Shown here piece after piece: positions 4,607-23,875 of a stretch of 24,947 nt of DNA; within the stretch, counting starts at the first letter, position 1, and every line of letters starts with the position of its first letter. The position numbers and the translations under genes are program-made. A model generated the notes under the pieces. That model was not told the DNA's origin. It made no database searches and saw only the letters and a list, made by a program, of their open reading frames with translations. The stretch spans positions 1 through 24,947 of the forward strand of contig DATJGA010000056.1 in assembly GCA_035495395.1 (NCBI GenBank). Reading direction: 5' to 3'. The stretch is from Mycobacteriales bacterium. Its GTDB lineage: Bacteria > Actinomycetota > Actinomycetes > Mycobacteriales > SCTD01.

Positions 4607-4609
4607 GCC

Positions 4610-6730: not shown

Positions 6731-6758
6731 GTCGTCTCCCGTCGCCCGGAGAAGGCCC

Positions 6759-6764: not shown

Positions 6765-6812
6765 CCGACGTACCGGTGTGGTGGTTGGATGTTGTCCGAC
6801 CCAGGAGGACGC

Positions 6813-8033
6813 GTGAACGAAGGACGTGCCGCCGCGGAGGCGGGCTTCGACCCCGCTCGACTCGAGCGCCTCGACCGCCACTTCGCGGGGTACGTCGACG
6901 ACGGCCGGCTCGCCGGGTGGGAGCTCGCGCTGACGCGTCACGACGGTGTCGTGCACACGAGCAGCTACGGGTGGCGCGACCGCGAGGCCGAGGTGCCGGT
7001 CGACGGCAAGACGGTGTGGCGCATCGCCTCGATGACCAAGCCCATCACCGCGGTCGCGGCGATGTCGCTGTGGGAGGAGGGGGCCTTCGAGCTCACCGAC
7101 CCCATCAGCCGGTGGCTGCCGGAGTTCGCGCAGCCGCAGGTGTACGTGAAGGGCAACCACCTCAACCCCTTCACGGCGCCGAGCCAGGAGCCGATCCGCG
7201 TGTGGCACCTGCTCAGCCACGCCTCGGGGCTGAGCGCGGGCTTCATGTACACGCACGTCGTCGACCACCTCTACCGCGCCGCCGGCTACGAGTGGGGCGC
7301 CCCGCCCGGGTCGACGCTCGCGGACTGCGTCCGCGACTGGGCCGCGCTCCCGCTGCGCTTCGAGCCCGGCACCGCCTGGGGGTACGGCGTGTCGACGGAC
7401 GTGCTGGGACGACTGCTCGAGGTGGTGACCGGCAAGACCCTCGACGAGGTGTTCACCGAGCGGGTGCTGCGCCCGCTGGGCATGGACGACACCGGCTTCT
7501 TCGCCGAGGGCCCCCGAGCCGACCGGCTCCCGGCGGTCTACCAGCGCGACCCCGTGACCGGTGCGGCGCTGCGCAACGACGCGATGAGCCAGACCGGCCG
7601 GGTGATGCCGACGGTGCTCTCCGGCGGTGGCGGCCTGGTGAGCACCCTCGACGACTACACCCGCTTCACCCGCATGCTGGCGCTGGAGGGCGAGCTCGAC
7701 GGCGTCCGCCTGCTCACGCCCGCCACGGTGCGCCTCATGCGGCAGAACCACCTGCCGGGCGACCTCGGCCAGGTGTCGACCGGCGGCTTCGCCGAGACGA
7801 CCTTCGACGGGGTCGGCTTCGGCCTCGGCTTCGCCACCGTGCTCGACCCCGTCAAGCTGCGCTCGCCCAGCTCGCCGGGGGAGTTCTACTGGGGCGGCGC
7901 CTACAGCACCGCGTTCTGGGTGGACCCGGTCACCGGCATCACCTGCACCTTCATGGCGCAGCTGTTCCCGTCGAGCACCTACCCGATCCGGGCGCAGCTC
8001 CGGCAGCTGGTCTACAGCGCCTTCACCGGCTGA
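6813..8033 (+). CDS. Serine hydrolase, beta-lactamase-related fold (family VIII carboxylesterase-like)
   Basis: SxxK (IASMTK), LLSHASG, FEPGTAWGYG with catalytic Tyr, SGGGGLVST and a C-terminal WGG motif. GTG 6813 follows a strong CAGGAGG SD. Confidence 0.9.
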   Translation: MNEGRAAAEAGFDPARLERLDRHFAGYVDDGRLAGWELALTRHDGVVHTSSYGWRDREAEVPVDGKTVWRIASMTKPITAVAAMSLWEEGAFELTDPISRWLPEFAQPQVYVKGNHLNPFTAPSQEPIRVWHLLSHASGLSAGFMYTHVVDHLYRAAGYEWGAPPGSTLADCVRDWAALPLRFEPGTAWGYGVSTDVLGRLLEVVTGKTLDEVFTERVLRPLGMDDTGFFAEGPRADRLPAVYQRDPVTGAALRNDAMSQTGRVMPTVLSGGGGLVSTLDDYTRFTRMLALEGELDGVRLLTPATVRLMRQNHLPGDLGQVSTGGFAETTFDGVGFGLGFATVLDPVKLRSPSSPGEFYWGGAYSTAFWVDPVTGITCTFMAQLFPSSTYPIRAQLRQLVYSAFTG

Positions 8034-8809
8034 GCCGCGTCGACCTCGGCCAGGAAGCCGAGCACCTCCAGGGTGGGCGCGTCGCCCACCTCCACGAGGT
8101 AGTTGTGCCCGCAGCCCTCGTACTCGACGAGCCGGCTGTCCGGCAGCGTCGCGGCGAGCTCGCGCCCCCACTCGACGGGCACGATGGGGTCCTCGGTGCC
8201 GTGCAGGACGAGCGCCGGCATCGTCAGTGCCGCCAGGTCGGACAGGCTGCCCTGGTAGGCGCGCAGCGCGTCCTGCTGGGCGACGAGGGCCTGTGGCACC
8301 GCGGTGTCCTCGAGGATGGCCCGGTGGTTGCGCGTCCTCGCCTCGGGCGGGCAGACCGAGCCGTACGCCGTGCTGTCCGCGAGGTCCTTCCGGGAGGCCG
8401 CCAGCAGGGCGTCGTTCACCTCGATCGGGGCGCGCGGCTTGTCGGGGGTGAGGACGCAGGTGCAGCCCAGCACGAGCGACCGCACCCGCTCCGGCGCCGC
8501 CTTGGCCAGCTCCAGCGCGAGGACGCCGCCGAGGCTGATGCCGTAGACGTGCGCGGTCTCCAGGCCGGCTGCGTCGAGCACCGCCAACGCGTCGGCGGCG
8601 AGGTCCTCGATGCTCACCCCGGGGCGCCAGCTGCTACGGCCGGTGCCCTGGTTGTCGAAGGAGACCAGCGCGTGGTGCGCGCGCAGCAGGGGCAGCGCCG
8701 GGTACCACATCGCGCTGCTGTAGACCGCGCCCATGACGAGCAGCACCGGGCTGCCGGACCCGGTCTGCTCCCAGTGCAGGTGGTACCCGTCCCGCTGAAG
8801 CAGGCTCAT
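8012..8809 (-). CDS. Alpha/beta fold hydrolase (esterase/enol-lactonase-like), 265 aa
   Basis: Nucleophile elbow GISLGG, acid HGTEDPIVP, His in GCGHNY, FDNQGTGRS. ATG 8809 overlaps the stop of the upstream gene (ATGA, 8806-8809). The long 5' part of ORF 8012..10288 is a shadow. Confidence 0.9.
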   Translation of the reverse strand: MSLLQRDGYHLHWEQTGSGSPVLLVMGAVYSSAMWYPALPLLRAHHALVSFDNQGTGRSSWRPGVSIEDLAADALAVLDAAGLETAHVYGISLGGVLALELAKAAPERVRSLVLGCTCVLTPDKPRAPIEVNDALLAASRKDLADSTAYGSVCPPEARTRNHRAILEDTAVPQALVAQQDALRAYQGSLSDLAALTMPALVLHGTEDPIVPVEWGRELAATLPDSRLVEYEGCGHNYLVEVGDAPTLEVLGFLAEVDAAQPVKAL

Positions 8810-10632
8810 GCGCCGACGGTGCGACGGTTGAGCACCGCTGCCGGTCGGCTGAGCTCGACGTACCAGCTGCCCTGGGTGAGGGGCGTCTGGATCGCGGGCG
8901 CCGCGGCAGCGCCCGAGGGCGGGGTGCACTTGCTGTAGAAGGTCCGCCCGGTGACGTAGCCGGTCTTGGTGAAGATGTGCGCGGGCCGGCTGGGGAAGTG
9001 GCCGAGGGTGTAGCGCTGCCCGCAGTCGGCGTAGGCGTACGTGCCCATGCTCTCGTCGGCGTCGAGGTGGTCGGGGTCCCACCAGTAGACGCTGGCTGCC
9101 TTCGGGAAGGAACGGCGCCCGGGGTCGTCGTAGTCGCCCACCATGGCCCAGCTCTCGCGGTGGCTGGTGCCCACTGCGGGGATGTCGAGGTAGGCCTTGG
9201 CGAGCGACTCCCGCGTCAGGTGCGGCCCGTTGAGCTGCACCGCGGCGACCGCGTGCGAGATCATCTCCCAGTAGATGTGGCAGTACAGCGGGTGCGCGAC
9301 GTAGCCGGAGTCGACGCTGGCCACCGCCTTGTAGCACTCCATGTCGCTCGGGGCGAGGTTCACCTCGGCGATGTTCAGGCCGAAGGTGTGGCCGAGCTCC
9401 TCGACCGGCACGTCGCGGGTGAGGTAGGCGTCCTGGTCGAGCCCGCCCCAGCCGGTGGTGATCCACTCGGGGTAGTAGCCGATCCCCTCCGCCTGGATCT
9501 CGATCGCCATCGCGTCGACGATGTCGGTGTTGAGGATGACCGAGGAGACGTTCTCGCTCTGCAGCTTGAGCAGCGCCTGCTGGATCTCGTTCGCCATGTC
9601 GACGCCGGGTGCCTGGTCCAGCGGCGCGACACCGCAGGTCTTCAGGCCGGAGAGCAGCGTCGGGCCGGAGTTCGCCCAGGGCAGGGCGATCTCGATCGCG
9701 CCCCACGTGCGGTCCTTCTTCGGGTCGAAGGTCGCGTTGCCCGTCCTCACGCCGGCGATCGGCGGGTGCCCCTTGACCTGCTTGCAGATCCACTCGGCGG
9801 TGAGCTTCGCGGCCAGCGTCGGGCTGACCTGGCTCCAGGAGTAGCCGACCGGTCGCCGGGCCTGGTAGTACGACTCGATCGGGGCGAGCCACGAGTCGTT
9901 GACCACGTGGGCCTTCGCGTACTCGTCGATCTCGCCCTGGGTGCCCTCGATCTGCGCGGCGATCGGGTGGTACTTGGAGATCGCGTCCGTGGTGTCGGAC
10001 CGCTGGGTCGACTCGTCGGCGGTCGCGCTGCCCTCGGTGGCGTAGGCGAGCTGCAGCTTGCGGTTGTACGTCATCGCGTGCTTGTTGAAGTACTTCTGGA
10101 TGTCGTTCAGCGTCCGCAGCTGGGCCGAGGAGCGCGCGGTCGCGTCGTTGATGACGCCGTCGGTCTGCTGCTGGCCGTAGAACGACACGACCATGCTGTA
10201 CGTCGTGGAGGTGACCCCGGGCTGGGTGCTGCCGCCGTTGTTGCCGATGAACGCCGCCTGGCAGGGCGGCGCGTAGACCGAGTCCCACTGCCGCGGCGGG
10301 TCCCAGTTGGTGGCGCAGGTGACGGTGCTGCCGCCGGTCTTCTCCGGCGGTGTCGCCACCGGTACGGCGGTCGGCGGCGGCGTCGGCTTGCCGGCGCCCT
10401 CCTGGCCCGCGGTGTTGCTGCCGGGCTGGAACTGGGTCTTGATGAGGCTCTGCGCCTTGGCGTTCGGCGGCGCGTCGGGGGAGTACTCGCTGCCGCTCTG
10501 CGTGGTGTCGGGCGGCGGGCGCAGCGCGGAGGGCAGCACGAAGGCGACGACGAGCAGGGCCATGGCGGCGTACCCGGCGGGGACCAGCCGGTTCACCGCC
10601 TTGCTGCGCGTCGAGCGCCGGTCACGCGCCAC
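8806..10632 (-). CDS. Large membrane-anchored solute-binding protein, probably LivJ-like type I periplasmic binding fold, 8 Cys
   Basis: Basic N-terminus plus one hydrophobic segment (no lipobox), Pro/Thr-rich linker, NGGSTQPGVT entry into an alternating alpha/beta domain, YYPEWITTG and LNGPHLTRESL segments resembling HAAT-family SBPs. LivHM/FG genes lie across the promoter. Confidence 0.7.
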   Translation of the reverse strand: MARDRRSTRSKAVNRLVPAGYAAMALLVVAFVLPSALRPPPDTTQSGSEYSPDAPPNAKAQSLIKTQFQPGSNTAGQEGAGKPTPPPTAVPVATPPEKTGGSTVTCATNWDPPRQWDSVYAPPCQAAFIGNNGGSTQPGVTSTTYSMVVSFYGQQQTDGVINDATARSSAQLRTLNDIQKYFNKHAMTYNRKLQLAYATEGSATADESTQRSDTTDAISKYHPIAAQIEGTQGEIDEYAKAHVVNDSWLAPIESYYQARRPVGYSWSQVSPTLAAKLTAEWICKQVKGHPPIAGVRTGNATFDPKKDRTWGAIEIALPWANSGPTLLSGLKTCGVAPLDQAPGVDMANEIQQALLKLQSENVSSVILNTDIVDAMAIEIQAEGIGYYPEWITTGWGGLDQDAYLTRDVPVEELGHTFGLNIAEVNLAPSDMECYKAVASVDSGYVAHPLYCHIYWEMISHAVAAVQLNGPHLTRESLAKAYLDIPAVGTSHRESWAMVGDYDDPGRRSFPKAASVYWWDPDHLDADESMGTYAYADCGQRYTLGHFPSRPAHIFTKTGYVTGRTFYSKCTPPSGAAAAPAIQTPLTQGSWYVELSRPAAVLNRRTVGA

Positions 10633-11374
10633 GCCGGCCCGCCTTCGTCCTGGTCGGGCGCGCGGGGGAGCCGTTGTGCTGCGGCTCCGGCTGCGCCCCG
10701 ACGATCCGCAGCGCGATGTCGGAGTACGACGCGCACAGCGCCTCGGCGGTCACGCCGTACGCGTAGGGGAACCAGCCGGCGAGGCCGACCCCGAGGCTCC
10801 AGAAGACCACGGTGATGGCGTCGTCGTCAGGGTTGCTGAAGGTGCCGGTGCGACGGCCGCGGTCGAGGACGTCGCGCAGGATGCGCGCCGACTGCAGGCG
10901 GGCCGACTGGTCGCGCTCGAAGGCCGCGGGCGACAGGTTGCGCACCTCGCCGTTGACGATGCGGGTCAGCCGCGGGAACTCGCACGTCATCGTCACCAGC
11001 GCGGACATCGCGGCGGTGAGCTGGGCACGCGGGTCGTCGCCGACGTCCATGACGGCGGCGATCTGGCGCCGGCTGAACTCGGTGTGCCCGAGCTCGCTCA
11101 GCGCGTCGAGCATGGCCTGCTTGGAGGCGAAGCTCTTGTAGAGGCTGGCCGACTTGATGCCCACCAGCGCGGCGATGTCGCGCACCGACGTGGCGGCGTA
11201 GCCGATGTCGCCGAAGAGCTCCACGCAGGCGGACAGGATCGCGTGCTGGCTCGGGGTGAAGCGGTCCGTCGCCGGCAGCCCGCGGGGGTCGAGGTCGCTG
11301 CGCCACGGCAGGTTCGCCGACGACGTGGTCACGAGGGAAGCAGCCTCGGAGAGCGCTCCGGCCGACGTGGACAC
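10622..11374 (-). CDS. TetR/AcrR family transcriptional regulator (C-terminus resembles the KstR2-like group)
   Basis: HTH AILSACVELFGDIGYAATSVRDIAALVGIKSASLYKSF; C-terminal RIVNGEVRNLS...VLDRGRRTGTF...LAGWF. Start is uncertain. GTG 11374 is preferred because TTG 11410 is part of a TTGACA -35 box. Confidence 0.9.
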   Translation of the reverse strand: MSTSAGALSEAASLVTTSSANLPWRSDLDPRGLPATDRFTPSQHAILSACVELFGDIGYAATSVRDIAALVGIKSASLYKSFASKQAMLDALSELGHTEFSRRQIAAVMDVGDDPRAQLTAAMSALVTMTCEFPRLTRIVNGEVRNLSPAAFERDQSARLQSARILRDVLDRGRRTGTFSNPDDDAITVVFWSLGVGLAGWFPYAYGVTAEALCASYSDIALRIVGAQPEPQHNGSPARPTRTKAGRRGA

Positions 11375-11381
11375 GGCGGTC

Positions 11382-11410
11382 AGTCTGCTTCCGGGCACCG
11401 GGGCTGTCAA
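11382..11410 (-). promoter_or_regulatory. Housekeeping-sigma promoter of the tetR operon: TTGACA-17 bp-CAGACT
   Basis: Perfect -35 (11410-11405), 17-bp spacer, CAGACT (11387-11382), then 7 nt to in-frame GTG 11374 with no SD. Confidence 0.6.
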
Positions 11411-11556: not shown

Positions 11557-11581
11557 CAAACCCTGTGACCGCGGTTACATT
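11553..11581 (+). promoter_or_regulatory. Putative promoter of the 8-gene operon: TAGCCA-17 bp-TACATT
   Basis: TAnnnT -10 at 11576-11581, a 4/6 -35 at 11553-11558, and 7 nt to in-frame GTG 11589. Confidence 0.45.
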
Positions 11582-11588
11582 GGCCGAC

Positions 11589-12512
11589 GTGCTGGCCGCG
11601 AGAACCCAGAGTCGTGCGCCGCGCCAGGGCCGTTCGAGTGCGCTGTCCCGGCGTGTGGTCGCGGCTGCTGCCGTCGCGCTGCTGGCGTCGGGGTGCCTGC
11701 TGCACACGAAGACCTCGGAGGGGCGCGCGCTGCACCGGGCGCCGCAGGTGCTCGCCCGCGCGCAGAGCGTGGGCCTGTCCCTGACGGTGTCCTCGCGGCT
11801 GGCCCGGGTCGGCTCCCTCACCAGCCTTCCCGCACCCGACCCCGGCTTCCACGTCGACGGGGTGCTCGACCTCACGACCGGCCGCGCGGCGTACACGGAC
11901 GCGGGCCGCACGGTGGCCGTCTTCGACCGCAAGCACGTCTTCGCGCTGCGGCCGCACGCCCGCCCGACGGACGCCCGTCCGTGGGTCGAGGTGGCGGTCG
12001 ACGAGGACCTCCAGGACCTCGTGCTCGACCCGGGTGCGCTGCCGCCGTCGCTCGCGCTGCGCGCGCTGCGGCCGTCGGTGCTCGTCGACGCGCTCGCCGG
12101 CGCGCTGACGGGCAGCATCGAGCGGCGTGGTCAGGAGGACGTCGACGGAACGCCCACGACGAAGTACACGGCCCGCTTCGACCTGACCCAGGCGCTGGCC
12201 GAGAGCACCCGGCACCGCTACTCGCAGCACGACCAGGACGACCTGGCCAAGCTCTTCGAGGTGCTGGGGGTCAAGGAGGACGCCCTCAACGACGGCGCCG
12301 TGTGGCTCGACGCGCAGGGCGCTCCGCGCCGGCTGCAGCTGGCACTGCGCGAGTCCCCGACCCCGCAGAGCCTCATCCTGCTGCTGGTCGACCTGCGGCT
12401 GACCCCGCGGTCGGAGCCGGTCCTCATCGACGTGCCGGCGGTCAGCGCGGTCACGACCGTCCCGTCGCTGTTCCAGTTCCTCCAGCCGCTCAAGCCCGGG
12501 GCCGCCGCGTGA
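11589..12512 (+). CDS. Lipoprotein, LppX/LprG (LolA-like) fold candidate
   Basis: SRRVVAAAAVALLASGC signal with lipobox. Beta-rich body with GQEDVDGTPTTKYTARFDL and VWLDAQGAPRRL, as in LppX_LprAFG-like proteins. Alternative start GTG 11565. Confidence 0.65.
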   Translation: MLAARTQSRAPRQGRSSALSRRVVAAAAVALLASGCLLHTKTSEGRALHRAPQVLARAQSVGLSLTVSSRLARVGSLTSLPAPDPGFHVDGVLDLTTGRAAYTDAGRTVAVFDRKHVFALRPHARPTDARPWVEVAVDEDLQDLVLDPGALPPSLALRALRPSVLVDALAGALTGSIERRGQEDVDGTPTTKYTARFDLTQALAESTRHRYSQHDQDDLAKLFEVLGVKEDALNDGAVWLDAQGAPRRLQLALRESPTPQSLILLLVDLRLTPRSEPVLIDVPAVSAVTTVPSLFQFLQPLKPGAAA

Positions 12513-14731
12513 GCCGGGTCGCGCAGCTGCGCCGCGCCGCTGCTCCCGTGCTCTTCCTCCTGCTCGCCGTCGCTGCCGGCCGGCTGGTGACCGTCGTGCA
12601 CGGCACCTCCACCGCGCCCTGGGGCATCCTCCTCGGGTACGGCGCGGTCTTCGGCTGCGGCACCGCCCTGTCCAGCGTGGGCCTCGTCCTCGTCTACCGC
12701 TCGGCGCGCATCATCAACTTCAGCCAGGCGTCGTACGGCGTGAACGCGGCGCTGCTCTTCCTCCTGCTCACGACGGGGAAGGGCTGGAACTACTGGGTCG
12801 CGCTCGGGGTGAGCGTGCTCGCGACCGCTTCGGTCGCCTTCCTCGTCGAGCTGCTCGTGCTGCGGAAGTTCGCCAAGGCGCCGCGCCTGGTGCTCACCCT
12901 CATCACGGTCGTCCTCGTGCAGATCTTCGCGGCGGTCACGATCCTGCTGCCGCGGGCGTTCGGCTACTCGCCCCCCAAGAACGGCCTGCCCTACGTGCGG
13001 CTGCCCTCCTTCCCCGCGCGCACGCCCTTCGACCGCACCCGCTTCCACTGGGCCGGGGCGCCCTTCAACGGCGACCACGTCGCGCTCGTCGTGGCCACGC
13101 TCGTGATGGTGCTCGCCCTGGGCCTGTTCCTGCGGAAGAGCCGTCTCGGCACGGCGATCCGCGGCGCGGCGGAGAACTCGTCGAGGGTCGAGCAGCTCGG
13201 GGTCAGCACCGGGGTGCTCTCCTCGACGACGTGGGTGCTGGTCGCCGTGCTGTCCGCGGTCGGCGCGATCCTCGCCACGACTGCCCAGGGGGGCACCCTC
13301 CAGCAGTACTCGCAGAGCGCGGACGCGGCCTACGGCCCGCTGATGGTCGCGCTCACCGCCGCCGTCATCGCCCGGCTCGAGAGCCTGCCGATGGCGTTCG
13401 CCGCCGCCTTCGGCCTCACCGTCTTCGAGCAGGGCCTGACCTGGTCGTTCAACAACGACCAGGCGGTCCTCAACCTCGTCCGGTTCGGCCTCATCCTGCT
13501 CGTGCTGCTGCTGCAGCCGACGCGCCGCTCGCGCACCGACGCGGCGTCCTCCAGCAGCTGGGCCGGCAGCGAGGAGATCCGCGCCATCCCGTCGGTGCTG
13601 CAGCGGCTGCCCGCCGTGCAGACCGGCGTACGGCGGGCGCGCTGGGTGTTCGGCGGGCTGCTGCTGGCCTACCCGTTCGTGGTGTCGCCGGGGCAGCTCT
13701 CGCTCGGCACGACCTACGTCATCTACGCGATCGTCGGGGTCTCCATCGTCATCCTCACCGGCTGGGCCGGCCAGGTGAGCCTCGGCCAGTTCGCGCTCGT
13801 CGCGGTCGGGGCGCTCACCGGGGCGTGGGTGATCGGCGACCTGCACCTGCCGTTCGGGCTGGCGCTGGTGGCGGGCACCGTCGTGTCCGCGCTGGTCGCG
13901 GTGCTCGTCGGGCTGCCGGCGCTGCGGCTGCAGGGGCTCTACCTCGCGGTCACCACGCTGGCGCTGGCGACGACGACGGCCGGCCTGATCGGCTCGCACC
14001 GCTTCCTCGAGCCGCACCTGCCCAGCGCGGTGGGCCGGCCCCAGATCCTCGGGCTCGACCTCAACACGAACCTGCGCGGCTACTACTACCTCTGCGTGGC
14101 CGCGACCGCGCTGGCCGTCCTCACCGCGGCACGGCTCCGCCGTACCCGCACGGCGCGGCTGCTCATCGCGATGCGCGACAACGAGCGGATGGCGCAGGCC
14201 TACGGCATCAACCTCGTGCGCACCCGGCTCATCGCGTTCGCGCTCTCGGGCGGCATGGCCGGCTTCGCCGGCGTCCTGTACGTGGTCCAGCAGCGCGCGG
14301 TGACGGCCGGCTCGTACGGGCCGCAGCTCTCGGTCTCGATGTTCCTCATGGCCGTGCTCGGCGGCCTGGGCTCGGTCTACGCGGTCCTCGCCGGGGCGGC
14401 GTACTTCGCGATCTGCGCGACGGTGGTGTCCGGCACCCTCGCCACGCTGCTGACCGGCGGCATCGGGGTGCTGCTGGTCATGCTGTTCTTCCCGGCCGGC
14501 CTCGGCGCGATGGGCTACTCGGTGCGCGACGCCTGGCTGCGCAGGGTGGCGCAGCGCTACCGCATCTACGTCCCGAGCCTGGCCGGTGACCGCATCAAGC
14601 GCGGCGAGGAGGCGCTGGTGCCCATCGCCGCCGGCACCGAGCGCGAGCCGCTGCCCGAGCGGTACCGCGTGCCCTCGCGGATCAGCGAGTTCGGGCGCTC
14701 GCAGCAGCTGGCGAAGGCGTGGCGGTACTGA
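12509..14731 (+). CDS. Fused LivH-LivM branched-chain-amino-acid-type (HAAT) ABC permease, 740 aa
   Basis: LivH half: GLVLVYRSARIINFSQ and GTAIRGAAEN. LivM half: TGWAGQVSLGQ, LRLQGLYLAVTTL and MRDNERMAQAYGIN. GTGA overlap with the upstream stop at 12509-12512. Confidence 0.9.
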   Translation: MSRVAQLRRAAAPVLFLLLAVAAGRLVTVVHGTSTAPWGILLGYGAVFGCGTALSSVGLVLVYRSARIINFSQASYGVNAALLFLLLTTGKGWNYWVALGVSVLATASVAFLVELLVLRKFAKAPRLVLTLITVVLVQIFAAVTILLPRAFGYSPPKNGLPYVRLPSFPARTPFDRTRFHWAGAPFNGDHVALVVATLVMVLALGLFLRKSRLGTAIRGAAENSSRVEQLGVSTGVLSSTTWVLVAVLSAVGAILATTAQGGTLQQYSQSADAAYGPLMVALTAAVIARLESLPMAFAAAFGLTVFEQGLTWSFNNDQAVLNLVRFGLILLVLLLQPTRRSRTDAASSSSWAGSEEIRAIPSVLQRLPAVQTGVRRARWVFGGLLLAYPFVVSPGQLSLGTTYVIYAIVGVSIVILTGWAGQVSLGQFALVAVGALTGAWVIGDLHLPFGLALVAGTVVSALVAVLVGLPALRLQGLYLAVTTLALATTTAGLIGSHRFLEPHLPSAVGRPQILGLDLNTNLRGYYYLCVAATALAVLTAARLRRTRTARLLIAMRDNERMAQAYGINLVRTRLIAFALSGGMAGFAGVLYVVQQRAVTAGSYGPQLSVSMFLMAVLGGLGSVYAVLAGAAYFAICATVVSGTLATLLTGGIGVLLVMLFFPAGLGAMGYSVRDAWLRRVAQRYRIYVPSLAGDRIKRGEEALVPIAAGTEREPLPERYRVPSRISEFGRSQQLAKAWRY

Positions 14732-17643
14732 TGGCCATCCGCAGGCCTGCGACAGGCGAACCCGGCAGGGCACCGCTGGCGCTGCTGACGATCCTGAGCT
14801 TCACGGACACCCTCGGGGTGGCCACGTTCGTGCTGCTCCTGCCCGAGATCCGGGACTACTACGGCGCGAGCCTGGCCCGCGTCCAGGTCATGGTGACGAT
14901 CGCGGCCCTGCTCCCGCTGCTGATCTCGGTCCCCATCGGCTTCCTGTCGGACCGGGCCAGGCGCTCGATCCTCCTGGGGATCGGCTTCACCCTCTCCGGG
15001 CTGTTCGCGATCGGCTCGGCCTTCGCGCCCGGCCTGCTCGTCCTCGGGGTCATGCGGCTGGGGGCGGGGCTGGGGCAGTGCTTCGAAGGTGGCACCCAGT
15101 CGCTGGTGAGCGACACCTACCCGCTGCAGCGGAGGGGTGCCGTCCTCACCGTGGTGGCCATGGCGGTGCCCGCGGGCGCGTGCTTCGGCCCGCTGCTCGC
15201 CGGCTTCGTCGGCCAGCACTACGGCTGGCAGGTCCCGTTCCTGCTCGCCGGGATCCCCACCCTGCTGCTCGCGGGCTGGGTGTTCCGGCTGTCGAACCCT
15301 CCGCGCGGTGGCCAGGAGCGGCGGGCGCAGGGCGCCGACGAGGTCGCCGTGGCGACCGAGGACGCCCCGCCCGGGTGGACCGAGGGCTGGCGCATCGCCC
15401 GCAGCGTGCGCACGCTCGTGCGGCTGTGGGCCTCCTTGCCGTTCCTCGTGGGCAGCGGCCTGGTGGTGCTCCGCGAGACACCGTTCCTCTTCCACGACGA
15501 GTTCCACCTGTCGACCAGCCAGCGCGGGCTCGTGACGGCGGGGCAGAACGGCGCCGCCCTGCTGACCCTGGTCCTGCTGACGCCGATGATGCGGAGGCTG
15601 GCCGCGCGCGCCCCGGCCCGGTTGCTGACCTTCGGCGGTCTGCTCGCCACCGCGGCGGCGGCCCTGATGGTGGTCATGGCGGTCTCGCCGTGGCTGTGGC
15701 TGACGATCCTGGCGCTGGTCGGTGTCGGCGTCGTGACGGCTCCGCTCTGGCCGATCATCCTCTCCCTCGTCTCGCTGACGGTCCCCGCGCGGGCACGCGG
15801 GTTCGCCCTCTCGTTCGGCTCGCTGTTCGTCGCCCTCGGGCTCTTCGCCAACCCGATCGTCGCGGTTCTCGCCCAGGACAAGGGCGTGCGCTGGGGGATC
15901 GCGGCCATCGCGCCGGTGTTCCTCGTCGGCGCGCTCATCGTGGCGAGCGCCGGCGCGAGCGTCGGTGCGGACATCCGTGCTGCCGCTGCTGCCGCGATGG
16001 CAGGCGAGGTCGTGCGCCGCGGCCGCGAGGAGGGCAGCGTGAAGCTGCTCGTCTGCCGCGACCTCGACGCCGGCTACGGCCAGGTGCAGATCCTGTTCAA
16101 CCTCGACCTCGAGATCGAGGAGGGCGAGATCGTCGCCCTGCTCGGGACCAACGGCGCGGGCAAGTCGACGCTGCTGTCGGCCATCAACGGCAGCAACCCG
16201 GCCAGCAACGGTGCCGTGCTCTTCGACGGCGAGCCGATCACGCAGCTGCCGGCGAGCGAGCACATCCGGCGGGGCATCGTGTCGGTGCCCGGCGGCAAGG
16301 CGATCTGCCCGGGCCTCACGGTGCAGGAGAACCTCGACCTCGCGCTGTGGGCGCGCGGCGACGACAGCGACGCCGACGAGCGGCTGGCCCGCGTGTACGG
16401 GTACTTCCCGCGGCTCAAGGAGCGCGAGCACGAGCCCGCCGGCAACCTCTCCGGCGGTGAGCAGCAGATGCTCGCGCTGTCGCAGGCGTTCATCGTCCGG
16501 CCGCGGCTGCTCATGATCGACGAGCTCTCGCTCGGCCTGGCCCCTGCGGTCGTGGAGCAGCTGCTGGAGATCGTCCGCGAGATCCACGCCGAGGGCGCGA
16601 CCATCATCCTCGTCGAGCAGTCGGTCAACGTCGCCCTGACGATCGCCCACCGCGCGGTCTTCATGGAGAAGGGCGAGGTGCGGTACACCGGCCCGACCGC
16701 GGAGCTGCTCGACCGGCCCGACGTGCTGCGCTCGGTCTTCCTCGCGGGCGCGGGCAGCGCCGGCGGCAGCTACGCCCGCGGCCGCCGTCCGCTGGCGTCC
16801 CCGGACCCGACCGAGGGCCCGGCCGTGGTGCTGCGGGTGCAGGACGTGGAGCGCTCGTTCGGCGGCGTGCAGGCGCTGCGCGGGGCGAGCCTGGAGCTGC
16901 GGGCGGGCGAGACGCTGGGGCTCATCGGCCCCAACGGCGCCGGCAAGACGACGCTGTTCGACGTCATCTCGGGCTTCGTCATGCCGACCTCGGGGACCGT
17001 CGAGCTGCTGGGCGAGGACGTCACCGACCTGTCGCCGGAGCGGCGCGCGGTGCTCGGGCTGGGCCGCTCCTTCCAGGACGCCCGGCTGTTCCCGGCGCTG
17101 ACCGTCGAGGAGACCCTCCTCGTCACGCTGGACCGGCACCACCAGGCGCGCAGCTTCGCGGGGACGACCCTCGGGCTCCCCAAGGCCCGGCGCGCGGAGG
17201 CGCTCCTGCGTCGCCGGGCCGAGCGGCTGATGATGCTGCTCAACATCACCGACTTCCGGGACAAGTTCGTCCGGGAGCTGTCGACCGGCAGCCGGCGGCT
17301 GGTCGACCTCGCCTGCGTGCTGGCCGGCGACCCCGACGTGCTGCTGCTCGACGAGCCGTCGTCCGGCATCGCGCAGAAGGAGACCGAGGAGCTGCCCGCC
17401 CTGCTCGACCGCATCAAGTTCGAGACCGGTTGCGCGCTGCTCATCATCGAGCACGACATGCAGCTGATCTCCGCCGTCTCCGACGAGCTCGTCGCCATGG
17501 AGCTGGGACGAGACGTGGTCCGCGGCAAGCCCGCCGACGTCCTCAACGACCCGCGTGTCGTCGCTGCCTACCTGGGCAACGACAGCGCGGTCATCCACCG
17601 ATCCGGTCAGCCGTCCGGACCACGCCATGGAGTGACACCGTGA
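14731..17643 (+). CDS. Triple fusion: MFS transporter + LivF-type ATPase + LivG-type ATPase, 970 aa
   Basis: MFS motifs GFLSDRARR (A), MRLGAGLG (B), GACFGPLLAG (C), about 12 TMs. NBD1: GTNGAGKS, LSGGEQQ, LMIDELSLGLAP. NBD2: GPNGAGKT, LSTGSRR, LLLDEPSSG and C-terminal DPRVVAAYLG. One uninterrupted ORF. TGATG coupling to the permease. Confidence 0.9.
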   Translation: MAIRRPATGEPGRAPLALLTILSFTDTLGVATFVLLLPEIRDYYGASLARVQVMVTIAALLPLLISVPIGFLSDRARRSILLGIGFTLSGLFAIGSAFAPGLLVLGVMRLGAGLGQCFEGGTQSLVSDTYPLQRRGAVLTVVAMAVPAGACFGPLLAGFVGQHYGWQVPFLLAGIPTLLLAGWVFRLSNPPRGGQERRAQGADEVAVATEDAPPGWTEGWRIARSVRTLVRLWASLPFLVGSGLVVLRETPFLFHDEFHLSTSQRGLVTAGQNGAALLTLVLLTPMMRRLAARAPARLLTFGGLLATAAAALMVVMAVSPWLWLTILALVGVGVVTAPLWPIILSLVSLTVPARARGFALSFGSLFVALGLFANPIVAVLAQDKGVRWGIAAIAPVFLVGALIVASAGASVGADIRAAAAAAMAGEVVRRGREEGSVKLLVCRDLDAGYGQVQILFNLDLEIEEGEIVALLGTNGAGKSTLLSAINGSNPASNGAVLFDGEPITQLPASEHIRRGIVSVPGGKAICPGLTVQENLDLALWARGDDSDADERLARVYGYFPRLKEREHEPAGNLSGGEQQMLALSQAFIVRPRLLMIDELSLGLAPAVVEQLLEIVREIHAEGATIILVEQSVNVALTIAHRAVFMEKGEVRYTGPTAELLDRPDVLRSVFLAGAGSAGGSYARGRRPLASPDPTEGPAVVLRVQDVERSFGGVQALRGASLELRAGETLGLIGPNGAGKTTLFDVISGFVMPTSGTVELLGEDVTDLSPERRAVLGLGRSFQDARLFPALTVEETLLVTLDRHHQARSFAGTTLGLPKARRAEALLRRRAERLMMLLNITDFRDKFVRELSTGSRRLVDLACVLAGDPDVLLLDEPSSGIAQKETEELPALLDRIKFETGCALLIIEHDMQLISAVSDELVAMELGRDVVRGKPADVLNDPRVVAAYLGNDSAVIHRSGQPSGPRHGVTP

Positions 17644-18644
17644 ACGCCAGCCTCTTCAAGAAGCGCTTCGACAAGATCGCCGACAACGTCAACTCGGTGA
17701 TCCACGGCAAGGACGACGTGGTGCGGCTGGCCCTCGTCGCCGCCTGCGCCAACGGGCACGTCCTGTTCGAGGACGTCCCCGGCGTCGGCAAGTCCATGCT
17801 CGCCCGGGCGCTGGGCATCTCCATGGGGTGCGGCACCAACCGCATCCAGTGCACGCCCGACATGCTGCCCGGCGACATCACGGGGTCCTCCGTGATCGAC
17901 CAGTCCGGCGGCCGCATGAAGTTCGTCTTCAAGCCGGGCCCGGTGTTCACCAACATCCTGCTCGTCGACGAGATCAACCGCTCGACGCCCAAGACGCAGT
18001 CGGCGCTCCTCGAGGCGATGGCCGAGCGCAACGTCACCGCCGAGGGCGTCACCCACCCGCTGCCCGCGCCCTTCCTGTGCCTGGCCACGCAGAACCCGAT
18101 CGAGAACGCCGGCACCTTCCCGCTCCCCGAAGCCCAGCTCGACCGCTTCCTGTTCAAGCTCTCGATCGGCTACCCGGACCTCGAGGCCGAGCGCCTCGTG
18201 GCCCGCGGCAACGCGCTCACCCTCGAGGTGGACAACCTCGGCCCGGTCTGCAACGCCGAGGAGATCGTGGAGATGCAGCGGATGGCCTCGGAGGTGACGA
18301 TCTCCACCGCCGTCGAGACTTACATCCTCGAGATCGTCCAGGCGACCCGGCAGGACAAGGCGCTGCTCATGGCCGCCAGCCCGCGCGCCACCATCGCGCT
18401 CTTCAAGGCCTCCAAGGCGCTGGCCGCCGCCGACGGTCGCAGCACCGTGTACCCCGAGGACGTCAAGGCGCTGCTCAACCCGGTGCTCGCCCACCGCACC
18501 CTGCTCTCGCCCGAGGCGCTGCTGCGGGGCGACAGCGTCAGCGACGTCCTCGAGCGCACCGCCGGTCGCATCAAGCCCCCGATGGTCAGCGCGGTCGACG
18601 TCCCCGAGGCGCCCGCCCGCCGCCGTACCCGCAAGGCCTCCTGA
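17640..18644 (+). CDS. moxR: MoxR-family AAA+ ATPase (MoxR proper type)
   Basis: EDVPGVGKS, RIQCTPDMLPGDITG, ILLVDEINR, ATQNPIE..GTFPLPEAQLDRF and ASPRA. GTGA overlap and a GGAG SD. Confidence 0.93.
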   Translation: MNASLFKKRFDKIADNVNSVIHGKDDVVRLALVAACANGHVLFEDVPGVGKSMLARALGISMGCGTNRIQCTPDMLPGDITGSSVIDQSGGRMKFVFKPGPVFTNILLVDEINRSTPKTQSALLEAMAERNVTAEGVTHPLPAPFLCLATQNPIENAGTFPLPEAQLDRFLFKLSIGYPDLEAERLVARGNALTLEVDNLGPVCNAEEIVEMQRMASEVTISTAVETYILEIVQATRQDKALLMAASPRATIALFKASKALAAADGRSTVYPEDVKALLNPVLAHRTLLSPEALLRGDSVSDVLERTAGRIKPPMVSAVDVPEAPARRRTRKAS

Positions 18645-18652: not shown

Positions 18653-19984
18653 GTGACCGCTCTCGACGACGTGACCACGACCAGCGCCCCGGCGCCGGCT
18701 GCCGCTGCGCCGGCCGCCGAGACCGTCGTGCAGCAGGTCGAGGTGCAGCACAAGCTCGGCCGCCGGGTGATGGACCGCATCACCGACGTCACCGGGTTCA
18801 CGTCCTCGGGCCTCATCCTGCTCGGCATCACCGCCGGGGCCTGGTCGCTCGGCTACTACGTCGGTGGCCGCCCGCTCTACCTCATGGCGTACGGCGGAGC
18901 CGCCGTGCTCGTGGCCTCGTGGCTCTACGGGCGCCGGACCCCTGACCTGACAGGGGCGCGCTCGGAGGTCCAGGCGCGGGTGCGCGAGGGCCAGTCGGTC
19001 ACCGTCGAGGTGTCGCTCACCGCTGGTCGCCGGATGTCGACGCTCATCCTCGAGGAGCGGCTGCCCCCGGTGCTCGGTGCGTCGCCGCGGATCTCCATCG
19101 CCGAGCTGGCCGAGGGCGACGCCGCAGGCAACACGTACCAGCTGACCTGCTCGCGGCGCGGCGTCTACACGCTGGGCCCGCTCGTCGTGCGCTGGGGCGA
19201 CCCGTTCGGCCTCACCCAGCGGCGCCGCACGGTGTGCGACGAGTTCGAGATGTTCGTGCACCCGCGCGCCGACCCGGCCTCCGACCACCCGGCCGCCCGG
19301 CTGTGGGAGGACCCGCCGCAGCGCCCGCCCTTCTCCCGGCCGTGGCCGTCCGGCCTCGACTTCTACGGCATGCGCGCGTACGCCCCGGGCGACGACGTCC
19401 GCAACGTCGTGTGGCGCGCCTACGCGCGCACCGGCTCGCTGCTCGTCCGCGAGGCGGAGCAGGGCGTCACCGACAAGGTTCGGCTGCTCGTCGACCAGGA
19501 CGTCTCGGTCCACTCGCGCGGCCCGCTGTCGGAGTCGTTCGAGACGGCCATGCGGGTGGTCGCCTCGCTGGGGCTGCACCACCTCAAGGCCGGCTACACG
19601 GTGACCACCGACGGCAACGCCGAGCGCATCGCGCGGCCGCTGCGCGGCGTCGGCCGGGGCGGCATCGAGCTGCTCGACGCGCTCGCCCAGCTCAACCCGG
19701 TGAAGGCCAACCTGCTCGACATGCTGGCGCGTGTCGAGGCCACCGTCACCAACGACGTGGAGCTCATCGTCGTCACCCCGCGGCTCACCCTCGACGCGAT
19801 CCTGCGCATGCGGCTGCTCGTCGACCGCGGCGTCTCGGTCCGGGTGGTCGCGCTGCTCTGGGACGAGGAGGCCATCGACCACCTCGGGCAGGCGGCCGCG
19901 CTCGGCCTGAAGATCGTGGAGATCGGCCCGACGACGAACATCACGATGGCCCTGGCGCACGAGGTCGGGGGTGGCCTGCGATGA
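18653..19984 (+). CDS. DUF58 domain membrane protein (vWA-like C-terminus)
   Basis: Two N-terminal TMs, Ig-like segment with RRGVYTLGPL..DPFGL, and GLDFYGMRAYAPGDDVRNVVWR (DUF58 signature). Start uncertain: 18653, 18671 or 18770. Confidence 0.87.
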   Translation: MTALDDVTTTSAPAPAAAAPAAETVVQQVEVQHKLGRRVMDRITDVTGFTSSGLILLGITAGAWSLGYYVGGRPLYLMAYGGAAVLVASWLYGRRTPDLTGARSEVQARVREGQSVTVEVSLTAGRRMSTLILEERLPPVLGASPRISIAELAEGDAAGNTYQLTCSRRGVYTLGPLVVRWGDPFGLTQRRRTVCDEFEMFVHPRADPASDHPAARLWEDPPQRPPFSRPWPSGLDFYGMRAYAPGDDVRNVVWRAYARTGSLLVREAEQGVTDKVRLLVDQDVSVHSRGPLSESFETAMRVVASLGLHHLKAGYTVTTDGNAERIARPLRGVGRGGIELLDALAQLNPVKANLLDMLARVEATVTNDVELIVVTPRLTLDAILRMRLLVDRGVSVRVVALLWDEEAIDHLGQAAALGLKIVEIGPTTNITMALAHEVGGGLR

Positions 19985-22293
19985 CCGTCGTCGACACGCC
20001 GCCGCAGCTCGAGCTCGTCGAGCCGCTGCCGCCGGAGGACAGCGGTCCGCCGGTCGAGGTCGAGCCCGACACCCGCCCGCCGCTGGCCGACCTGGTCCGC
20101 CCGGCAGCGGCGTCCGCCCTCGTCGCGGTGGCGGCCGGTTTCGAGGTCGGCGGCATCTTCGGCTCGTGGTTCGCCCGCGGGCTCGCGGCGCTCGCCGCCC
20201 TCGTCGGCGCGCTCTGCGCCGTGCTCGCCCAGCGGTCCCGCCGGCGCGACACGCTGCTGCTGCTCTACCCCCTCGGCCTCGTCGTCGCCGGGACCGCCAG
20301 CCTCGTCACCGCACCCGGCGGGCCGGCGAAGGTGGTCACGCTCGTCCGCGAGGCGCTGCACAGCGGCAGCCTGCTGCAGCCGCCGGTGCCGTTCGACCCG
20401 GGCTGGCGCGTCGTCCTCATCGTCACCCTGGGGCTGCTCGGCTTCGCCGGCGCCTGGATGGCCACCGCGATGGCCAAGCCGAAGCTCGGGCTCGCGGTCG
20501 GGCTGCCGGTCATCGGCCTCACCGCCATCACCCAGCCCGAGGACGCCAAGCTCATCGCGGGCGCGGTGCCGATCGCGCTCATCATCGCCGCCCTCGCCAT
20601 GCTCTTCGGCGGCGACGTCCGCTCGGCCCGCGACCTCGGCCGGGCCTTCGAGCTCAAGCGCGCGGCTCGGGCCGCGACGGTCGGCGTGCCGCTGCTCCTC
20701 GCCGTCGTGCTGCTCAACAAGGCGAGCTTCCTGTTCCCGAAGCCGGTGTACGACCCGGTGTCCTCGGCCCAGAAGCCGCGGCTGGTCTCGGCGGCCAGCG
20801 ACGACGTGCTCTTCGAGGTGCGCACGAAGACGAAGCTCACCGGCCCGTGGCGGGTCGGCGTGCTCGACACGTACAAGGACGACACGTTCCTGCTGCCGCC
20901 GCAGGACAACAAGCGGCTCGCCGACGTCTCAGGGGGCAAGGCCCTGCCGGAGGTGCCGTTCCGGCCGGACACCGGTGCGGTCACGCTGGTCCTGCACAAC
21001 CTGGGGGACACCCCGATCCTGCCCAGCCTCGCGGGTACGCAGTCCGTCACCACGACGCTCGAGGGCCTGTACGTCGACCAGCGCACCGACGTCCTGCGCA
21101 TCACCAGCGGCCGCCTGCCGTCCGGGCTGGAGTACACGCTGCACGTCCCGCCGTACGCGACGACGGTCGATCTCGAGGACGACGTGCCGTCGACCGGTCC
21201 GGACCTCGTCGACCAGCTCGCCGCGCCGCCGCCACCACCGGCCGTCGTCGACCTGCTCGCCAAGGCGCCGTCCAAGAACGCCTTCGACCGCATGGAGTAC
21301 GTGCAGCACCAGCTGGTCGACCACGTCACGGCCAAGGGCGCCGGCGTCCCGGTGCCGGTGAGCCCCGAGCGGGTGCAGGACCTGCTCGCCGGCTCGCGGG
21401 TGGGCTCGCCCTTCGAGATCGTCGCGGCCCAGGCGCTCATCGCGCGCTGGGCAGGCATCCCCAGCCGGATCGGCTTCGGGTACGACGGGGTCAACCACGA
21501 GCAGACCGGTGTCATCTCGGTGCGGCCGCGGAACGCGGCCGACTGGCTCGAGGTGAACTACCGGGGCTACGGGTGGCTGCCGCTGGTCTCGCAGCCGAAG
21601 CACGCGCAGCAGGACCTCAAGAACAAGCCCAAGCAGCACCACATCCTCGCCAACGGCGACATCGCCGTGCAGGTGTTCGTGCCCTACGAGCTGGTGACCG
21701 CGAAGCAGCTCTACCAGGTGGTGCGGTACTGGATCCTCGTCACCTCGCCGTTCGTCCTGCTGCTGCTCGGCAGCTACCTCGGCTGGCCCACGGTCGCCCG
21801 GGCGCGGCGCCGCACGAAGCGGCGGCGCTGGGCGCAGGCCCGCGGTCCGGCGTACCAGGTGGCCGTCGAGTACGCCGAGATGCGCGACACCGCGACCGAC
21901 CTCAACGTCGGTGACCTCGTCTCCACGCCGCTGGAGTACCTGTTCCAGGTCGCGCGCGACGACGAGCACGCCGAGCTGGCCTGGCTCACGACCCGGGTCC
22001 TGTACGGCGACCTCATGGACACCGTCACCGACGAGGACGTCGTGCGCGCCGAGGAGATGTCGCGGTCGGTGCGCCGTCGCCTCATGCGCGCGCAGCCGGT
22101 GCAGTCGCAGTTCCTCGCGGCCGTCTCGCGCGCCTCGCTGCGGACGCCGTACGAGCCGGCGCTGCCGAACGTGCGGGTGCTGCGCTTCCCGCGCCCGCTC
22201 GCGGCGCTCCGCCGCTGGTCGACCCGCCGGGCGCGCGCCCTGCGGCTCGCCCTGCTCGCCCTGCCCAGACCCCGACGGAGGATGTCGGTATGA
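19981..22293 (+). CDS. TgpA-like transglutaminase-domain membrane protein, catalytic triad absent
   Basis: Multi-TM N-terminus, extracellular domain, TGase-like core ALIARWAGIPSRIGFGY...WLEVNYRGYGW, one TM, then a DUF4129-like tail. ATGA overlap at 19981-19984. Confidence 0.8.
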   Translation: MTVVDTPPQLELVEPLPPEDSGPPVEVEPDTRPPLADLVRPAAASALVAVAAGFEVGGIFGSWFARGLAALAALVGALCAVLAQRSRRRDTLLLLYPLGLVVAGTASLVTAPGGPAKVVTLVREALHSGSLLQPPVPFDPGWRVVLIVTLGLLGFAGAWMATAMAKPKLGLAVGLPVIGLTAITQPEDAKLIAGAVPIALIIAALAMLFGGDVRSARDLGRAFELKRAARAATVGVPLLLAVVLLNKASFLFPKPVYDPVSSAQKPRLVSAASDDVLFEVRTKTKLTGPWRVGVLDTYKDDTFLLPPQDNKRLADVSGGKALPEVPFRPDTGAVTLVLHNLGDTPILPSLAGTQSVTTTLEGLYVDQRTDVLRITSGRLPSGLEYTLHVPPYATTVDLEDDVPSTGPDLVDQLAAPPPPPAVVDLLAKAPSKNAFDRMEYVQHQLVDHVTAKGAGVPVPVSPERVQDLLAGSRVGSPFEIVAAQALIARWAGIPSRIGFGYDGVNHEQTGVISVRPRNAADWLEVNYRGYGWLPLVSQPKHAQQDLKNKPKQHHILANGDIAVQVFVPYELVTAKQLYQVVRYWILVTSPFVLLLLGSYLGWPTVARARRRTKRRRWAQARGPAYQVAVEYAEMRDTATDLNVGDLVSTPLEYLFQVARDDEHAELAWLTTRVLYGDLMDTVTDEDVVRAEEMSRSVRRRLMRAQPVQSQFLAAVSRASLRTPYEPALPNVRVLRFPRPLAALRRWSTRRARALRLALLALPRPRRRMSV

Positions 22294-23327: not shown

Positions 23328-23875
23328 GCCGCCCCGCCCTGCTCGCCCCGCTCCTCGCCGTACTGGTCCTGGCCGGCTGCCAGGACGCACCAGAGGCGGC
23401 GCCGCGGCCGGTGCCCACGGCGCTCGCCCCGACCTCGGTGCTCCACGGGACCCTCGGCCTGTACCGGAACACCGCTGCCGGCACCGAGGCGGCGTTCCGC
23501 CAGAACGCCAAGGCCTCGCTCATCGACGAGGGCCAGCTGTGGGAGATCCGGCGCAAGGACCGGCTCATCGGCACCCTGCAGATCGCGACGGTGAAGCACG
23601 ACGTCGACCTGTCCGACAAGGACGTGCGCGAGCAGTTCACCGCGCCGATCCTCGTCGGCGCCCGCGGCGACATCCGGGTGCTGGGCCAGGAGGTCGACAT
23701 GGTCCAGAACGAGGGTGGGCTGGCGACGCTGGTCTGGTTCGGCAAGGGGCTGTTCCTCGTGCTGCAGGTCAAGGACCAGCTCGTCAGCGGGCCCGACCTC
23801 GCGCAGGCGATCATCGAGCACGAGCAGTCCCGTCCGGAGTGGACGCCGCTGCCGGAGCTGTACTCGCCGACCTGA
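23324..23875 (+). CDS. Uncharacterised small lipoprotein, 183 aa
   Basis: VSRPALLAPLLAVLVLAGC lipobox, GTGA overlap at 23324-23327, protein-like composition. It is the 3' part of ORF 21911..23875. Confidence 0.75.
   Translation: MSRPALLAPLLAVLVLAGCQDAPEAAPRPVPTALAPTSVLHGTLGLYRNTAAGTEAAFRQNAKASLIDEGQLWEIRRKDRLIGTLQIATVKHDVDLSDKDVREQFTAPILVGARGDIRVLGQEVDMVQNEGGLATLVWFGKGLFLVLQVKDQLVSGPDLAQAIIEHEQSRPEWTPLPELYSPT

Follow-up and report, generated by a model that had tools for sequence, protein, structure and literature searches.

Analysis of a 24,947-nucleotide stretch of DNA from a Mycobacteriales bacterium (contig DATJGA010000056.1 of assembly GCA_035495395.1; hereafter the window) showed that a single gene welds a full carrier of the major facilitator superfamily (MFS) onto both ATPases of a Liv-type ATP-binding cassette (ABC) importer. 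The gene (14731..17643, + strand) encodes 970 amino acids plus a stop and reads, in order, MFS domain, stalk, LivF-like nucleotide-binding domain (NBD1), linker and LivG-like nucleotide-binding domain (NBD2). It occupies the open reading frame (ORF) at 14719-17643 (+), most likely starting at the ATG at 14731, which overlaps by one base the stop of the upstream gene (cTGATGg); residues are numbered here from this methionine. Because long chance ORFs are frequent at the 72% G+C of the window, the G+C content of third codon positions (GC3) was used to check the coding frame. GC3 was 0.91-1.00 in one frame only over 14701-17400, and that frame stayed constant at ~16000 and ~16800. The original prediction, which called an in-frame fusion of MFS, LivF and LivG from the letters of the window, was thus confirmed as one 970-codon gene in a single coding frame, conserved in homologues; protein record P0004 holds the identical 970-amino-acid sequence.

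The MFS domain comprises 12 transmembrane (TM) helices and spans residues 14-410 (14770..15960) according to Pfam and an AlphaFold2 (AF2) model. It is followed by an Ala-rich stalk (15961..16041), delimited by the full-length AF2 model and by its spacing across homologues, and by NBD1, of LivF/UrtE-like type (residues 438-671, 16042..16743; Pfam, NCBIfam). After a disordered linker (671-689, 16744..16824; predicted local distance difference test score, pLDDT, ~40) comes NBD2, which is LivG/UrtD-like and carries a BCA_ABC_TP_C tail (residues 699-958, 16825..17604; Pfam, NCBIfam); all of these lie on the + strand. Pfam matched MFS_1 at 3e-42 (145 bits vs. a cut-off of 33.4), ABC_tran twice at 6e-61, and BCA_ABC_TP_C (PF12399) at 5e-7 over residues 936-955, which is the architecture for which a domain search had been suggested. 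In NCBIfam typing, residues 444-677 were LivF/UrtE-like and 704-955 LivG/UrtD-like; LivG (297 bits) and LivF (263 bits) were the best-matching types, both under their equivalog cut-offs. Only UrtE among the equivalog models exceeded its cut-off, and both NBDs add to that score. Since UrtE passed only with the two ATPase domains summed, the score was regarded as inflated, the urea-transporter label was dropped and the fused gene is not called a urea transporter. We consider this anatomy almost certain. The domain limits given by the original prediction agreed with those of Pfam and AF2 within a few codons, and MFS motifs A, B and C and the Walker A and B motifs of both NBDs were intact, as it had read them.

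The fused gene belongs to an importer operon. A fused LivH-LivM permease (LivHM) with two BPD_transp_2 domains (PF02653, 2.4e-53, two stretches) is encoded at 12509..14731 (+), and its stop overlaps the start of the MFS-LivF-LivG gene; cognate permeases had been placed just upstream, and Pfam confirms them there. NCBIfam LivM and LivH models also matched 12509-14731, below their cut-offs, and a sequence search found no solved structure for the LivHM permease. On the opposite strand, 8806..10632 (-) encodes P0125, a protein of ~600 amino acids with an N-terminal membrane anchor and an uncertain start. P0125 had no Pfam or NCBIfam match. By BLASTP it aligned over its full length with proteins of related loci (1e-41, 2e-36 and 1e-31) that themselves match Peripla_BP_6, one of them faintly, and because of this homology we assign it as the probable, divergent and tethered solute-binding protein of the system. 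With binding protein, LivHM and MFS-LivF-LivG all present, the locus is predicted to encode a complete binding-protein-dependent Liv/HAAT-type ABC importer, the ATPase subunit of which is the fused gene.

The fusion recurred widely. More than 110 full-length homologues (34-84% identity) kept it, and among the matches listed MFS_1 and ABC_tran were both present in 120 of 120 homologues (49-84% identity, ~950-1050 amino acids, from many samples). ESM Atlas held several clusters of 56-113 members, with 100% listed for both ABC_tran and MFS_1. Near-identical DNA was present in soil metagenomes from 11 studies. Logan contigs from two soil-metagenome studies spanned 15837-16071 and 15898-16098 with 0 gaps, short contigs that lend modest support, and no indel was listed over 15650-16220 in four metagenome runs. 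The junction between MFS and NBD1 (~16000), singled out earlier as the place where a stop or frameshift might hide, is therefore crossed by independent metagenome contigs free of gaps and indels, and close homologues keep the fusion rather than always encoding the MFS separately.

In a survey of species representatives, one genome per species was scanned for the TM1 motif, which yielded 124 confirmed loci, 80 of which were kept. A single open frame encoded MFS-NBD1-NBD2 at 65 of the 80 loci (one of these ending at a contig edge) and LivHM-MFS-NBD1-NBD2 at three; NBD2 was a separate gene at four, and the remaining loci were cut by contig ends or unclassified. The three five-domain frames (L041:5634-10892, L078:5700-10874 and L089:4908-10877) are 1724-1989 codons long, with starts that are not fixed, and Pfam identified in each BPD_transp_2 twice, MFS_1 and ABC_tran twice, i.e., LivH-LivM-MFS-LivF-LivG. 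LivHM lay immediately 5' of the MFS gene in all surveyed loci with upstream sequence. The idea that the MFS is tethered to the ABC importer is hence supported by the constant adjacency of LivHM, by these three genomes with a single-frame chain and by a near-invariant, confidently modeled helix. The invariant core of the system appears, from the loci compared, to be LivHM, MFS-LivF-LivG and one or more binding proteins.

Both ATPase domains retained their Walker and signature motifs. Walker A reads GTNGAGKST in NBD1 and GPNGAGKTT in NBD2, Walker B MIDE598 and LLDE875, and the signature LSGGE and LSTGS, respectively. The H-loop residue is Q630 (VEQS) in NBD1 and H908 in NBD2, where Q782 and H908 are invariant. 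Gln in place of His in the NBD1 H-loop is usual for LivF and was also found in a canonical LivF of the same genome; the VEQ and IEH H-loops agree with the canonical LivF and LivG of that genome. The Q-loop residue of NBD1 is Gly (VPGGK, residues 519-523, 16285-16299), conserved at >=90% in the family, and a canonical LivF encoded by this genome reads PEGR there. A specific adaptation to the MFS was rejected as the reason for this Gly, as fused paralogues of the same genome that lack the MFS share it. Comparison of these sequences suggests an asymmetric ATPase dimer across the whole actinobacterial Liv subfamily.

Modeled alone from 102 homologues, the MFS domain gave 12 TM helices with a pLDDT of 91.6 and a predicted TM-score (pTM) of 0.88, and a comparison of the model with the PDB gave 475 MFS matches at E<=1e-3. 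Motif A (G70-x-x-x-D74-R75-x-x-R78), motif B (R109) and motif C (G149-x-x-x-G-P154-x-x-x-G158) were complete. The TM8-TM9 loop forms a second motif-A-like segment, 'PPxxRG' loops follow TM4 and TM10, TM1 carries an Asp (D26), and the cytoplasmic TM6-TM7 loop (residues 186-228) is conserved. D74, R78, D128, R192 and R356 were invariant, R75, R109, P154 and G158 were conserved at >=90%, and G70, D74, R75, R78 and R109 were each invariant or >=90% conserved across 102-132 homologues. Median identity to the query was 38-39% for the MFS, 62-68% for the NBDs and 32% for the inter-NBD linker. The ratio of nonsynonymous to synonymous substitution rates (dN/dS), calculated against the 80%-identical locus L009, was 0.23-0.30 for the MFS, 0.20 for the stalk, 0.15-0.17 for the NBDs and 0.59 for the inter-NBD linker; absolute values are unreliable given the codon bias, and it is the ranking that counts. 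These comparisons point to purifying selection on the MFS domain.

The MFS could be placed by fold and not by subfamily. A PDB sequence search gave weak matches to the N-terminal half only (QacA at 3e-7, SotB, SPNS2, NorA and EmrB), with QacA and SotB above SPNS2. The Foldseek E-values of a bacterial Spinster homologue, DgoT, SPNS1/2, SV2A, VAChT, NorA and MdfA, all 13-20% identical, differed by no more than one order of magnitude, Spinster entries being among the top matches (6e9c at 2.6e-11; 9boi with TM-scores of 0.78/0.81), and a search of Swiss-Prot models ranked MhbT, MucK, PmrA, DgoT and MdtG first. No curated MFS subfamily model came near its cut-off, with TIGR00711, TIGR00710 and TIGR00880 far below. 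A DHA-type antiporter motif C (GxxxGPxxGG, TM5) is present, while the DHA1/DHA2 subfamily models scored far under their cut-offs. Assignment to a specific subfamily (Spinster, DHA, AAHS or ACS) was given up, since the searches did not discriminate between them, and a kinship with Spinster above other MFS families was not found, DgoT, SV2A, VAChT, NorA and MdfA being comparably near. The earlier description of the domain as 'spinster/DHA-like' is thus fair as regards the nearest folds and unspecific beyond that, as ACS, AAHS, VAChT and SV2A score alike at 13-23% identity; the resemblance gives no ground for proposing lipid flipping.

In the full-length AF2 model (132 homologues; pLDDT 91.7, pTM 0.78), TM12 ran on as one helix over residues 386-433 (pLDDT 93-96), after which the first beta-strand of NBD1 began at 438. 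D414 was invariant, and its distance to G465 of NBD1 was 51 residues in 112 of the 132 homologues (standard deviation 1.1). The linker between NBD1 and NBD2 was variable in sequence and ranged from 28 to 63 residues in the same homologues (standard deviation 4.7), and the region N-terminal to TM1 varied from 29 to 122 residues. The modeled helix and its constant length indicate a rigid link between MFS and NBD1 rather than a loose tether.

Free, fused and MFS-less forms of the system coexist. With the MFS part as the only query, an exhaustive search returned 92 representatives (E<=1e-30), which were ~1000, ~700 or ~430-470 amino acids long. Five short, stand-alone forms were checked and were complete genes: two lay within Liv operons (L018, L017) and three in unrelated contexts. 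At L017 the free MFS gene directly follows LivG. At L018 (4827-11286) a free 460-amino-acid MFS gene sits between LivHM and MFS-LivF-LivG, with all genes overlapping; the two MFS modules belong to different branches of the family, and two binding-protein-like genes of ~640 amino acids lie upstream. In a maximum-likelihood tree of the MFS, triple, double and stand-alone forms interleaved, and well-supported branches force at least 14 state changes, with the caveat that truncated gene calls may account for some 'double' rows. On these grounds, the view that the fusion arose only once was rejected. The interleaving implies frequent fusion and fission of MFS and LivF, an argument for an MFS that is functional on its own; it is probably an autonomous carrier that was repeatedly attached to, and detached from, LivF. 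The general rule that MFS carriers do not use NBDs, on which the original prediction relied, accordingly needs qualifying in a family whose stand-alone members interleave with fused ones. Whether as a separate gene or as part of a double, triple or quadruple fusion, the MFS always occupied the slot between LivM and LivF.

The same genome also encodes the importer without the carrier. One locus (L014:1435-5307, on contig 45 of this genome, G000) holds a 1290-codon frame LivH-LivM-LivF-LivG, the NBDs of which are 58-60% identical to those of the query. Another (L104, contig 281, 9000-14000, minus strand) encodes LivHM and LivF-LivG without an MFS, followed by MoxR (57% identity) and DUF58 (42%). 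The association of ABC transporter, MoxR and DUF58 thus exists with and without the MFS, and the contig 281 cluster is a natural control. Taken together, the paralogues on contigs 45 and 281 share with the query their NBDs (45-60% identity), LivHM (36-38%), the Gly Q-loop and the F-then-G order; unlike the query, they have nothing of an MFS between LivM and LivF. A LivM C-terminal tail specific to MFS-bearing systems was considered and rejected, as 'RDAWLR...VPSL' is common to an MFS-less paralogue.

Based on these observations, we propose the following mechanism. The two NBDs would form the usual ATP-driven dimer beneath LivH-LivM. The MFS would lie beside LivM in the membrane, because its slot is always between LivM and LivF and because some species link it covalently to both. 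The domain would act as a working rocker-switch carrier rather than a decayed anchor, since every cytoplasmic gating motif is conserved, as are the Asp of TM1 and the Arg of TM4, the domain is under apparent purifying selection and the stand-alone relatives are ordinary carriers; transport by the MFS would then be gradient-driven. As the link is rigid rather than loose, the ATPase cycle and the MFS cycle may be coupled through the stalk. That the MFS is active and mechanically or allosterically coupled to the ATPase is our preferred reading, held tentatively and with slightly more doubt than conviction. In a more specific version there would be two paths: LivHM would import at the expense of ATP and the MFS would carry a proton-coupled flux, with the state of either path gating the other. 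The MFS flux would probably be export or exchange, a direction favored because the antiporter-type motif C is kept, and its cargo would probably be related to the imported compound. This import/export version is doubtful. Similarly uncertain, and on balance unlikely, is a hybrid primary/secondary transporter in which ABC dimer and MFS rocker-switch are coupled via the TM12 stalk and in some species also via a LivM-MFS bond. If it were true, ATP hydrolysis would drive or gate the MFS flux, or the proton motive force would gate the ABC importer, and the mode of energy coupling would be new for both superfamilies.

Several points weigh against a coupled, active carrier. The ABC part can do without the MFS, as the paralogues of the same genome do. 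The fixed-length helix could serve assembly geometry alone. Stand-alone relatives also carry the conserved TM6-TM7 loop and D414, and a docking motif specific to the fusion (TM6-TM7 loop NPxRGxQERR ... VRTLRR; D414) was rejected because both elements occur in those relatives. Motif C is associated with antiporters in a statistical sense and does not prove direction. That the MFS lies next to LivM, and any contact it makes with the NBDs, are inferred. Furthermore, among the sequence-archive matches none of the RNA runs holds the sequence.

The rival that survives best is that the MFS is a sensor or 'transceptor' that, with no net flux, reads the proton motive force or a cytoplasmic or external ligand and holds LivF open or closed through the stalk, gating ATP hydrolysis much as the regulatory domains of MalK, MetN and ModC or the extra domain of NrtC may do. 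The rigid, fixed-length link to NBD1 would suit such a role, as would the dispensability of the MFS for the ABC core of the MFS-less paralogues, and accessory domains on importer NBDs are usually regulatory. Nevertheless, the complete set of transport motifs is conserved, and the nearest relatives include free carriers in unrelated contexts that interleave with the fused forms, which fits a transport-competent module better; we regard a pure sensor as unlikely, though it deserves to be taken seriously.

A passive role has also to be considered, in which the MFS only positions or stabilizes the ATPase at the membrane, or the fusion co-localizes two unrelated transporters for co-expression. The frequent fusion and fission, and an ABC core that in the paralogues does without the MFS, are what such an arrangement might produce. 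However, the gating motifs needed for conformational cycling are invariant over 34-84% identity with a dN/dS of 0.23-0.30, a tether would not require a helix of constant length, given how freely the linker between the NBDs varies, and canonical LivF and LivG require no anchor. A mere scaffold is therefore improbable. About as poorly placed, and marginally more so, is an ATP-driven MFS: the LivF-LivG dimer would (also) power the MFS, so that a carrier of the secondary type would become a primary pump, as ArsB becomes with ArsA, with TM12 acting like the TM6-to-NBD connection of ABC exporters. The fixed-length helix that runs from TM12 straight into NBD1 is compatible with this, as is the tying, in some species, of the N-terminal half to LivM and of the C-terminal half to LivF, and ArsAB sets a precedent; but an NBD is attached to only one of the two MFS halves, the region before TM1 varies in length, and the complete LivHM permease and the binding protein that come with the gene in every case already account for the ATPases. 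Lastly, an artefact, in which two genes were merged by an overlooked stop, by a frameshift or by assembly of a chimera, might be suspected in a fragmented source metagenome-assembled genome (MAG; 393 contigs, 73% complete) at a G+C content where chance ORFs are often long, but is effectively already refuted by a GC3 >0.9 in one coding frame throughout, by the full-length homologues from varied samples and the 65 of 80 loci with the same frame, and by the gap-free junction in independent metagenome contigs; the comparative evidence is decisive in excluding an assembly artefact.

Every named carrier of the fusion was an uncultured member of the Actinomycetota; most belong to the Acidimicrobiales/Acidimicrobiia, among them MAGs of Microthrix and Ilumatobacteraceae. 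Judged from the homologues retrieved, well over a hundred uncultured members of the phylum share the design, and the family occurs commonly among Acidimicrobiia of soil and freshwater and among their uncultured relatives in the Actinomycetota. When genomes were sampled evenly across the phylum, the MFS family was found at E<=1e-30 in 30 of 401 genomes and was concentrated in two families (10/10 and 7/21); in the window's own order outside its genus it was not found among the genomes of this sample. Within the genus, MFS-LivF and MFS-LivF-LivG paralogues were common, and no orthologue with >45% identity was seen in 18 genomes (G001-G018), which are incomplete MAGs. An unpublished genome, G024, entered a tally only, and none of the claims made here draws on it. 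Soil metagenomes held proteins 77-84% identical to the query. The cluster may be accessory, horizontally acquired, or on a mis-binned contig.

Some genes around the importer core are shared with related loci. A lipoprotein-like gene of ~300 amino acids (11565..12512, +; lipobox LASGC), conserved in related loci, lies upstream of LivHM and had a weak NCBIfam match to 'SCO4651 family lipoprotein' (42 bits vs. a cut-off of 65). A divergently oriented TetR-family regulator with an uncertain start (10622..11410, -) occupies the same place in L009 and L010. Tightly packed downstream on the + strand are genes for a MoxR AAA+ protein (17640-18644), a DUF58 protein (18656-19984), a TgpA-like membrane transglutaminase (19981-22293) and two lipoprotein-like proteins (22290-23327 and 23324-23875); the ends of MoxR, DUF58 and transglutaminase overlap or nearly touch after the ATPase gene. 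The three lipoprotein-type genes (11565-12512, 22290-23327 and 23324-23875) have the lipoboxes LASGC, LSAC and LAGC, respectively, belong to no Pfam family, and are kept with the transporter-MoxR-DUF58-transglutaminase block in distant loci. The whole arrangement of the window was repeated at five distant loci (49-80% identity). The MoxR block stood beside the transporter at 16 of the 80 surveyed loci, those nearest to the query and confined to its subclade, across two Actinomycetota classes, and the remaining loci mostly had one to four downstream binding-protein genes instead. Positions 1-8821, at the 5' end of the window, encode further proteins of transport and the envelope, namely a DrrA-like ABC ATPase with an ABC-2 permease, two MMPL transporters (on opposite strands), an alpha/beta hydrolase and a protein of the serine beta-lactamase family.

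No study of an MFS joined in one chain to ABC ATPases turned up in a full-text search of open-access papers and preprints; the components are familiar, their combination is not. What the analysis adds is a stalk of fixed length, conserved gating motifs in an MFS domain under apparent purifying selection, quadruple fusions, second MFS genes that stand free, a tree on which the forms interleave, paralogues that lack the MFS and the putative binding protein of this window. The automatic names in ESM Atlas include 'MFS transporter family protein'. Databases call such proteins just 'MFS transporter' or 'branched-chain amino acid ATP-binding protein', so that metabolic reconstructions of these abundant organisms now misread them. 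ABC and MFS proteins form the two largest transporter superfamilies and are presented in textbooks as alternatives, one driven by ATP and the other by ion gradients. Here a conserved natural protein joins the two by what is predicted to be a rigid connector within an otherwise ordinary importer, which opens to direct testing the long-standing question whether two modes of energy coupling can combine, or regulate each other, in one machine. Natural controls are at hand in the MFS-less paralogues of the same genome, the split versions and the all-in-one LivH-LivM-MFS-LivF-LivG chains.

The importer part resembles HAAT importers (TC 3.A.1.4: E. coli LivJ/K-LivHMGF, BraC-DEFG, cyanobacterial UrtABCDE) in its BPD_transp_2 permease pair, its LivG-type NBD with a BCA_ABC_TP_C tail and its LivF-type NBD with a VEQ H-loop, and probably in a Peripla_BP_6-related binding protein. 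It differs from them in that its LivF bears an N-terminal MFS of 12 TM helices and has Gly rather than Glu/Gln in the Q-loop, LivH is fused to LivM and LivF to LivG (F then G), and the putative binding protein is ~600 amino acids long, membrane-anchored and too divergent for Pfam. With MFS carriers of the DHA, Spinster, ACS and aromatic-acid symporter types (QacA, NorA, MdfA, HnSpns/SPNS1/2, DgoT and MhbT), the N-terminal domain has in common the fold (TM-scores 0.6-0.8), a motif A in each half, the Arg of motif B, the antiporter motif C and, in TM1, the pattern 'LDxx...LPxIxxD'; in contrast to these, it is only 13-23% identical to them and is fused to ABC ATPases via a rigid extension of TM12.

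Two further comparisons concern the joining of the parts. ArsB, the carrier of the ArsAB arsenite pump, is a secondary transporter able to act by itself that recruits a two-domain ATPase. The joining of a carrier with a two-domain ATPase is common to both systems as a functional analogy only, since ArsB is not an MFS protein, ArsA is not an ABC ATPase and the two are unfused, whereas the query has a full ABC permease too. Importer NBDs with accessory domains are likewise known, regulatory ones in MalK, MetN and ModC and binding-protein-like ones in NrtC/CmpC. These importers, which depend on binding proteins, thus share with the query an additional domain on the ATPase subunit; their domains, however, are soluble, C-terminal and regulatory, whereas that of the query is a complete N-terminal membrane transporter.

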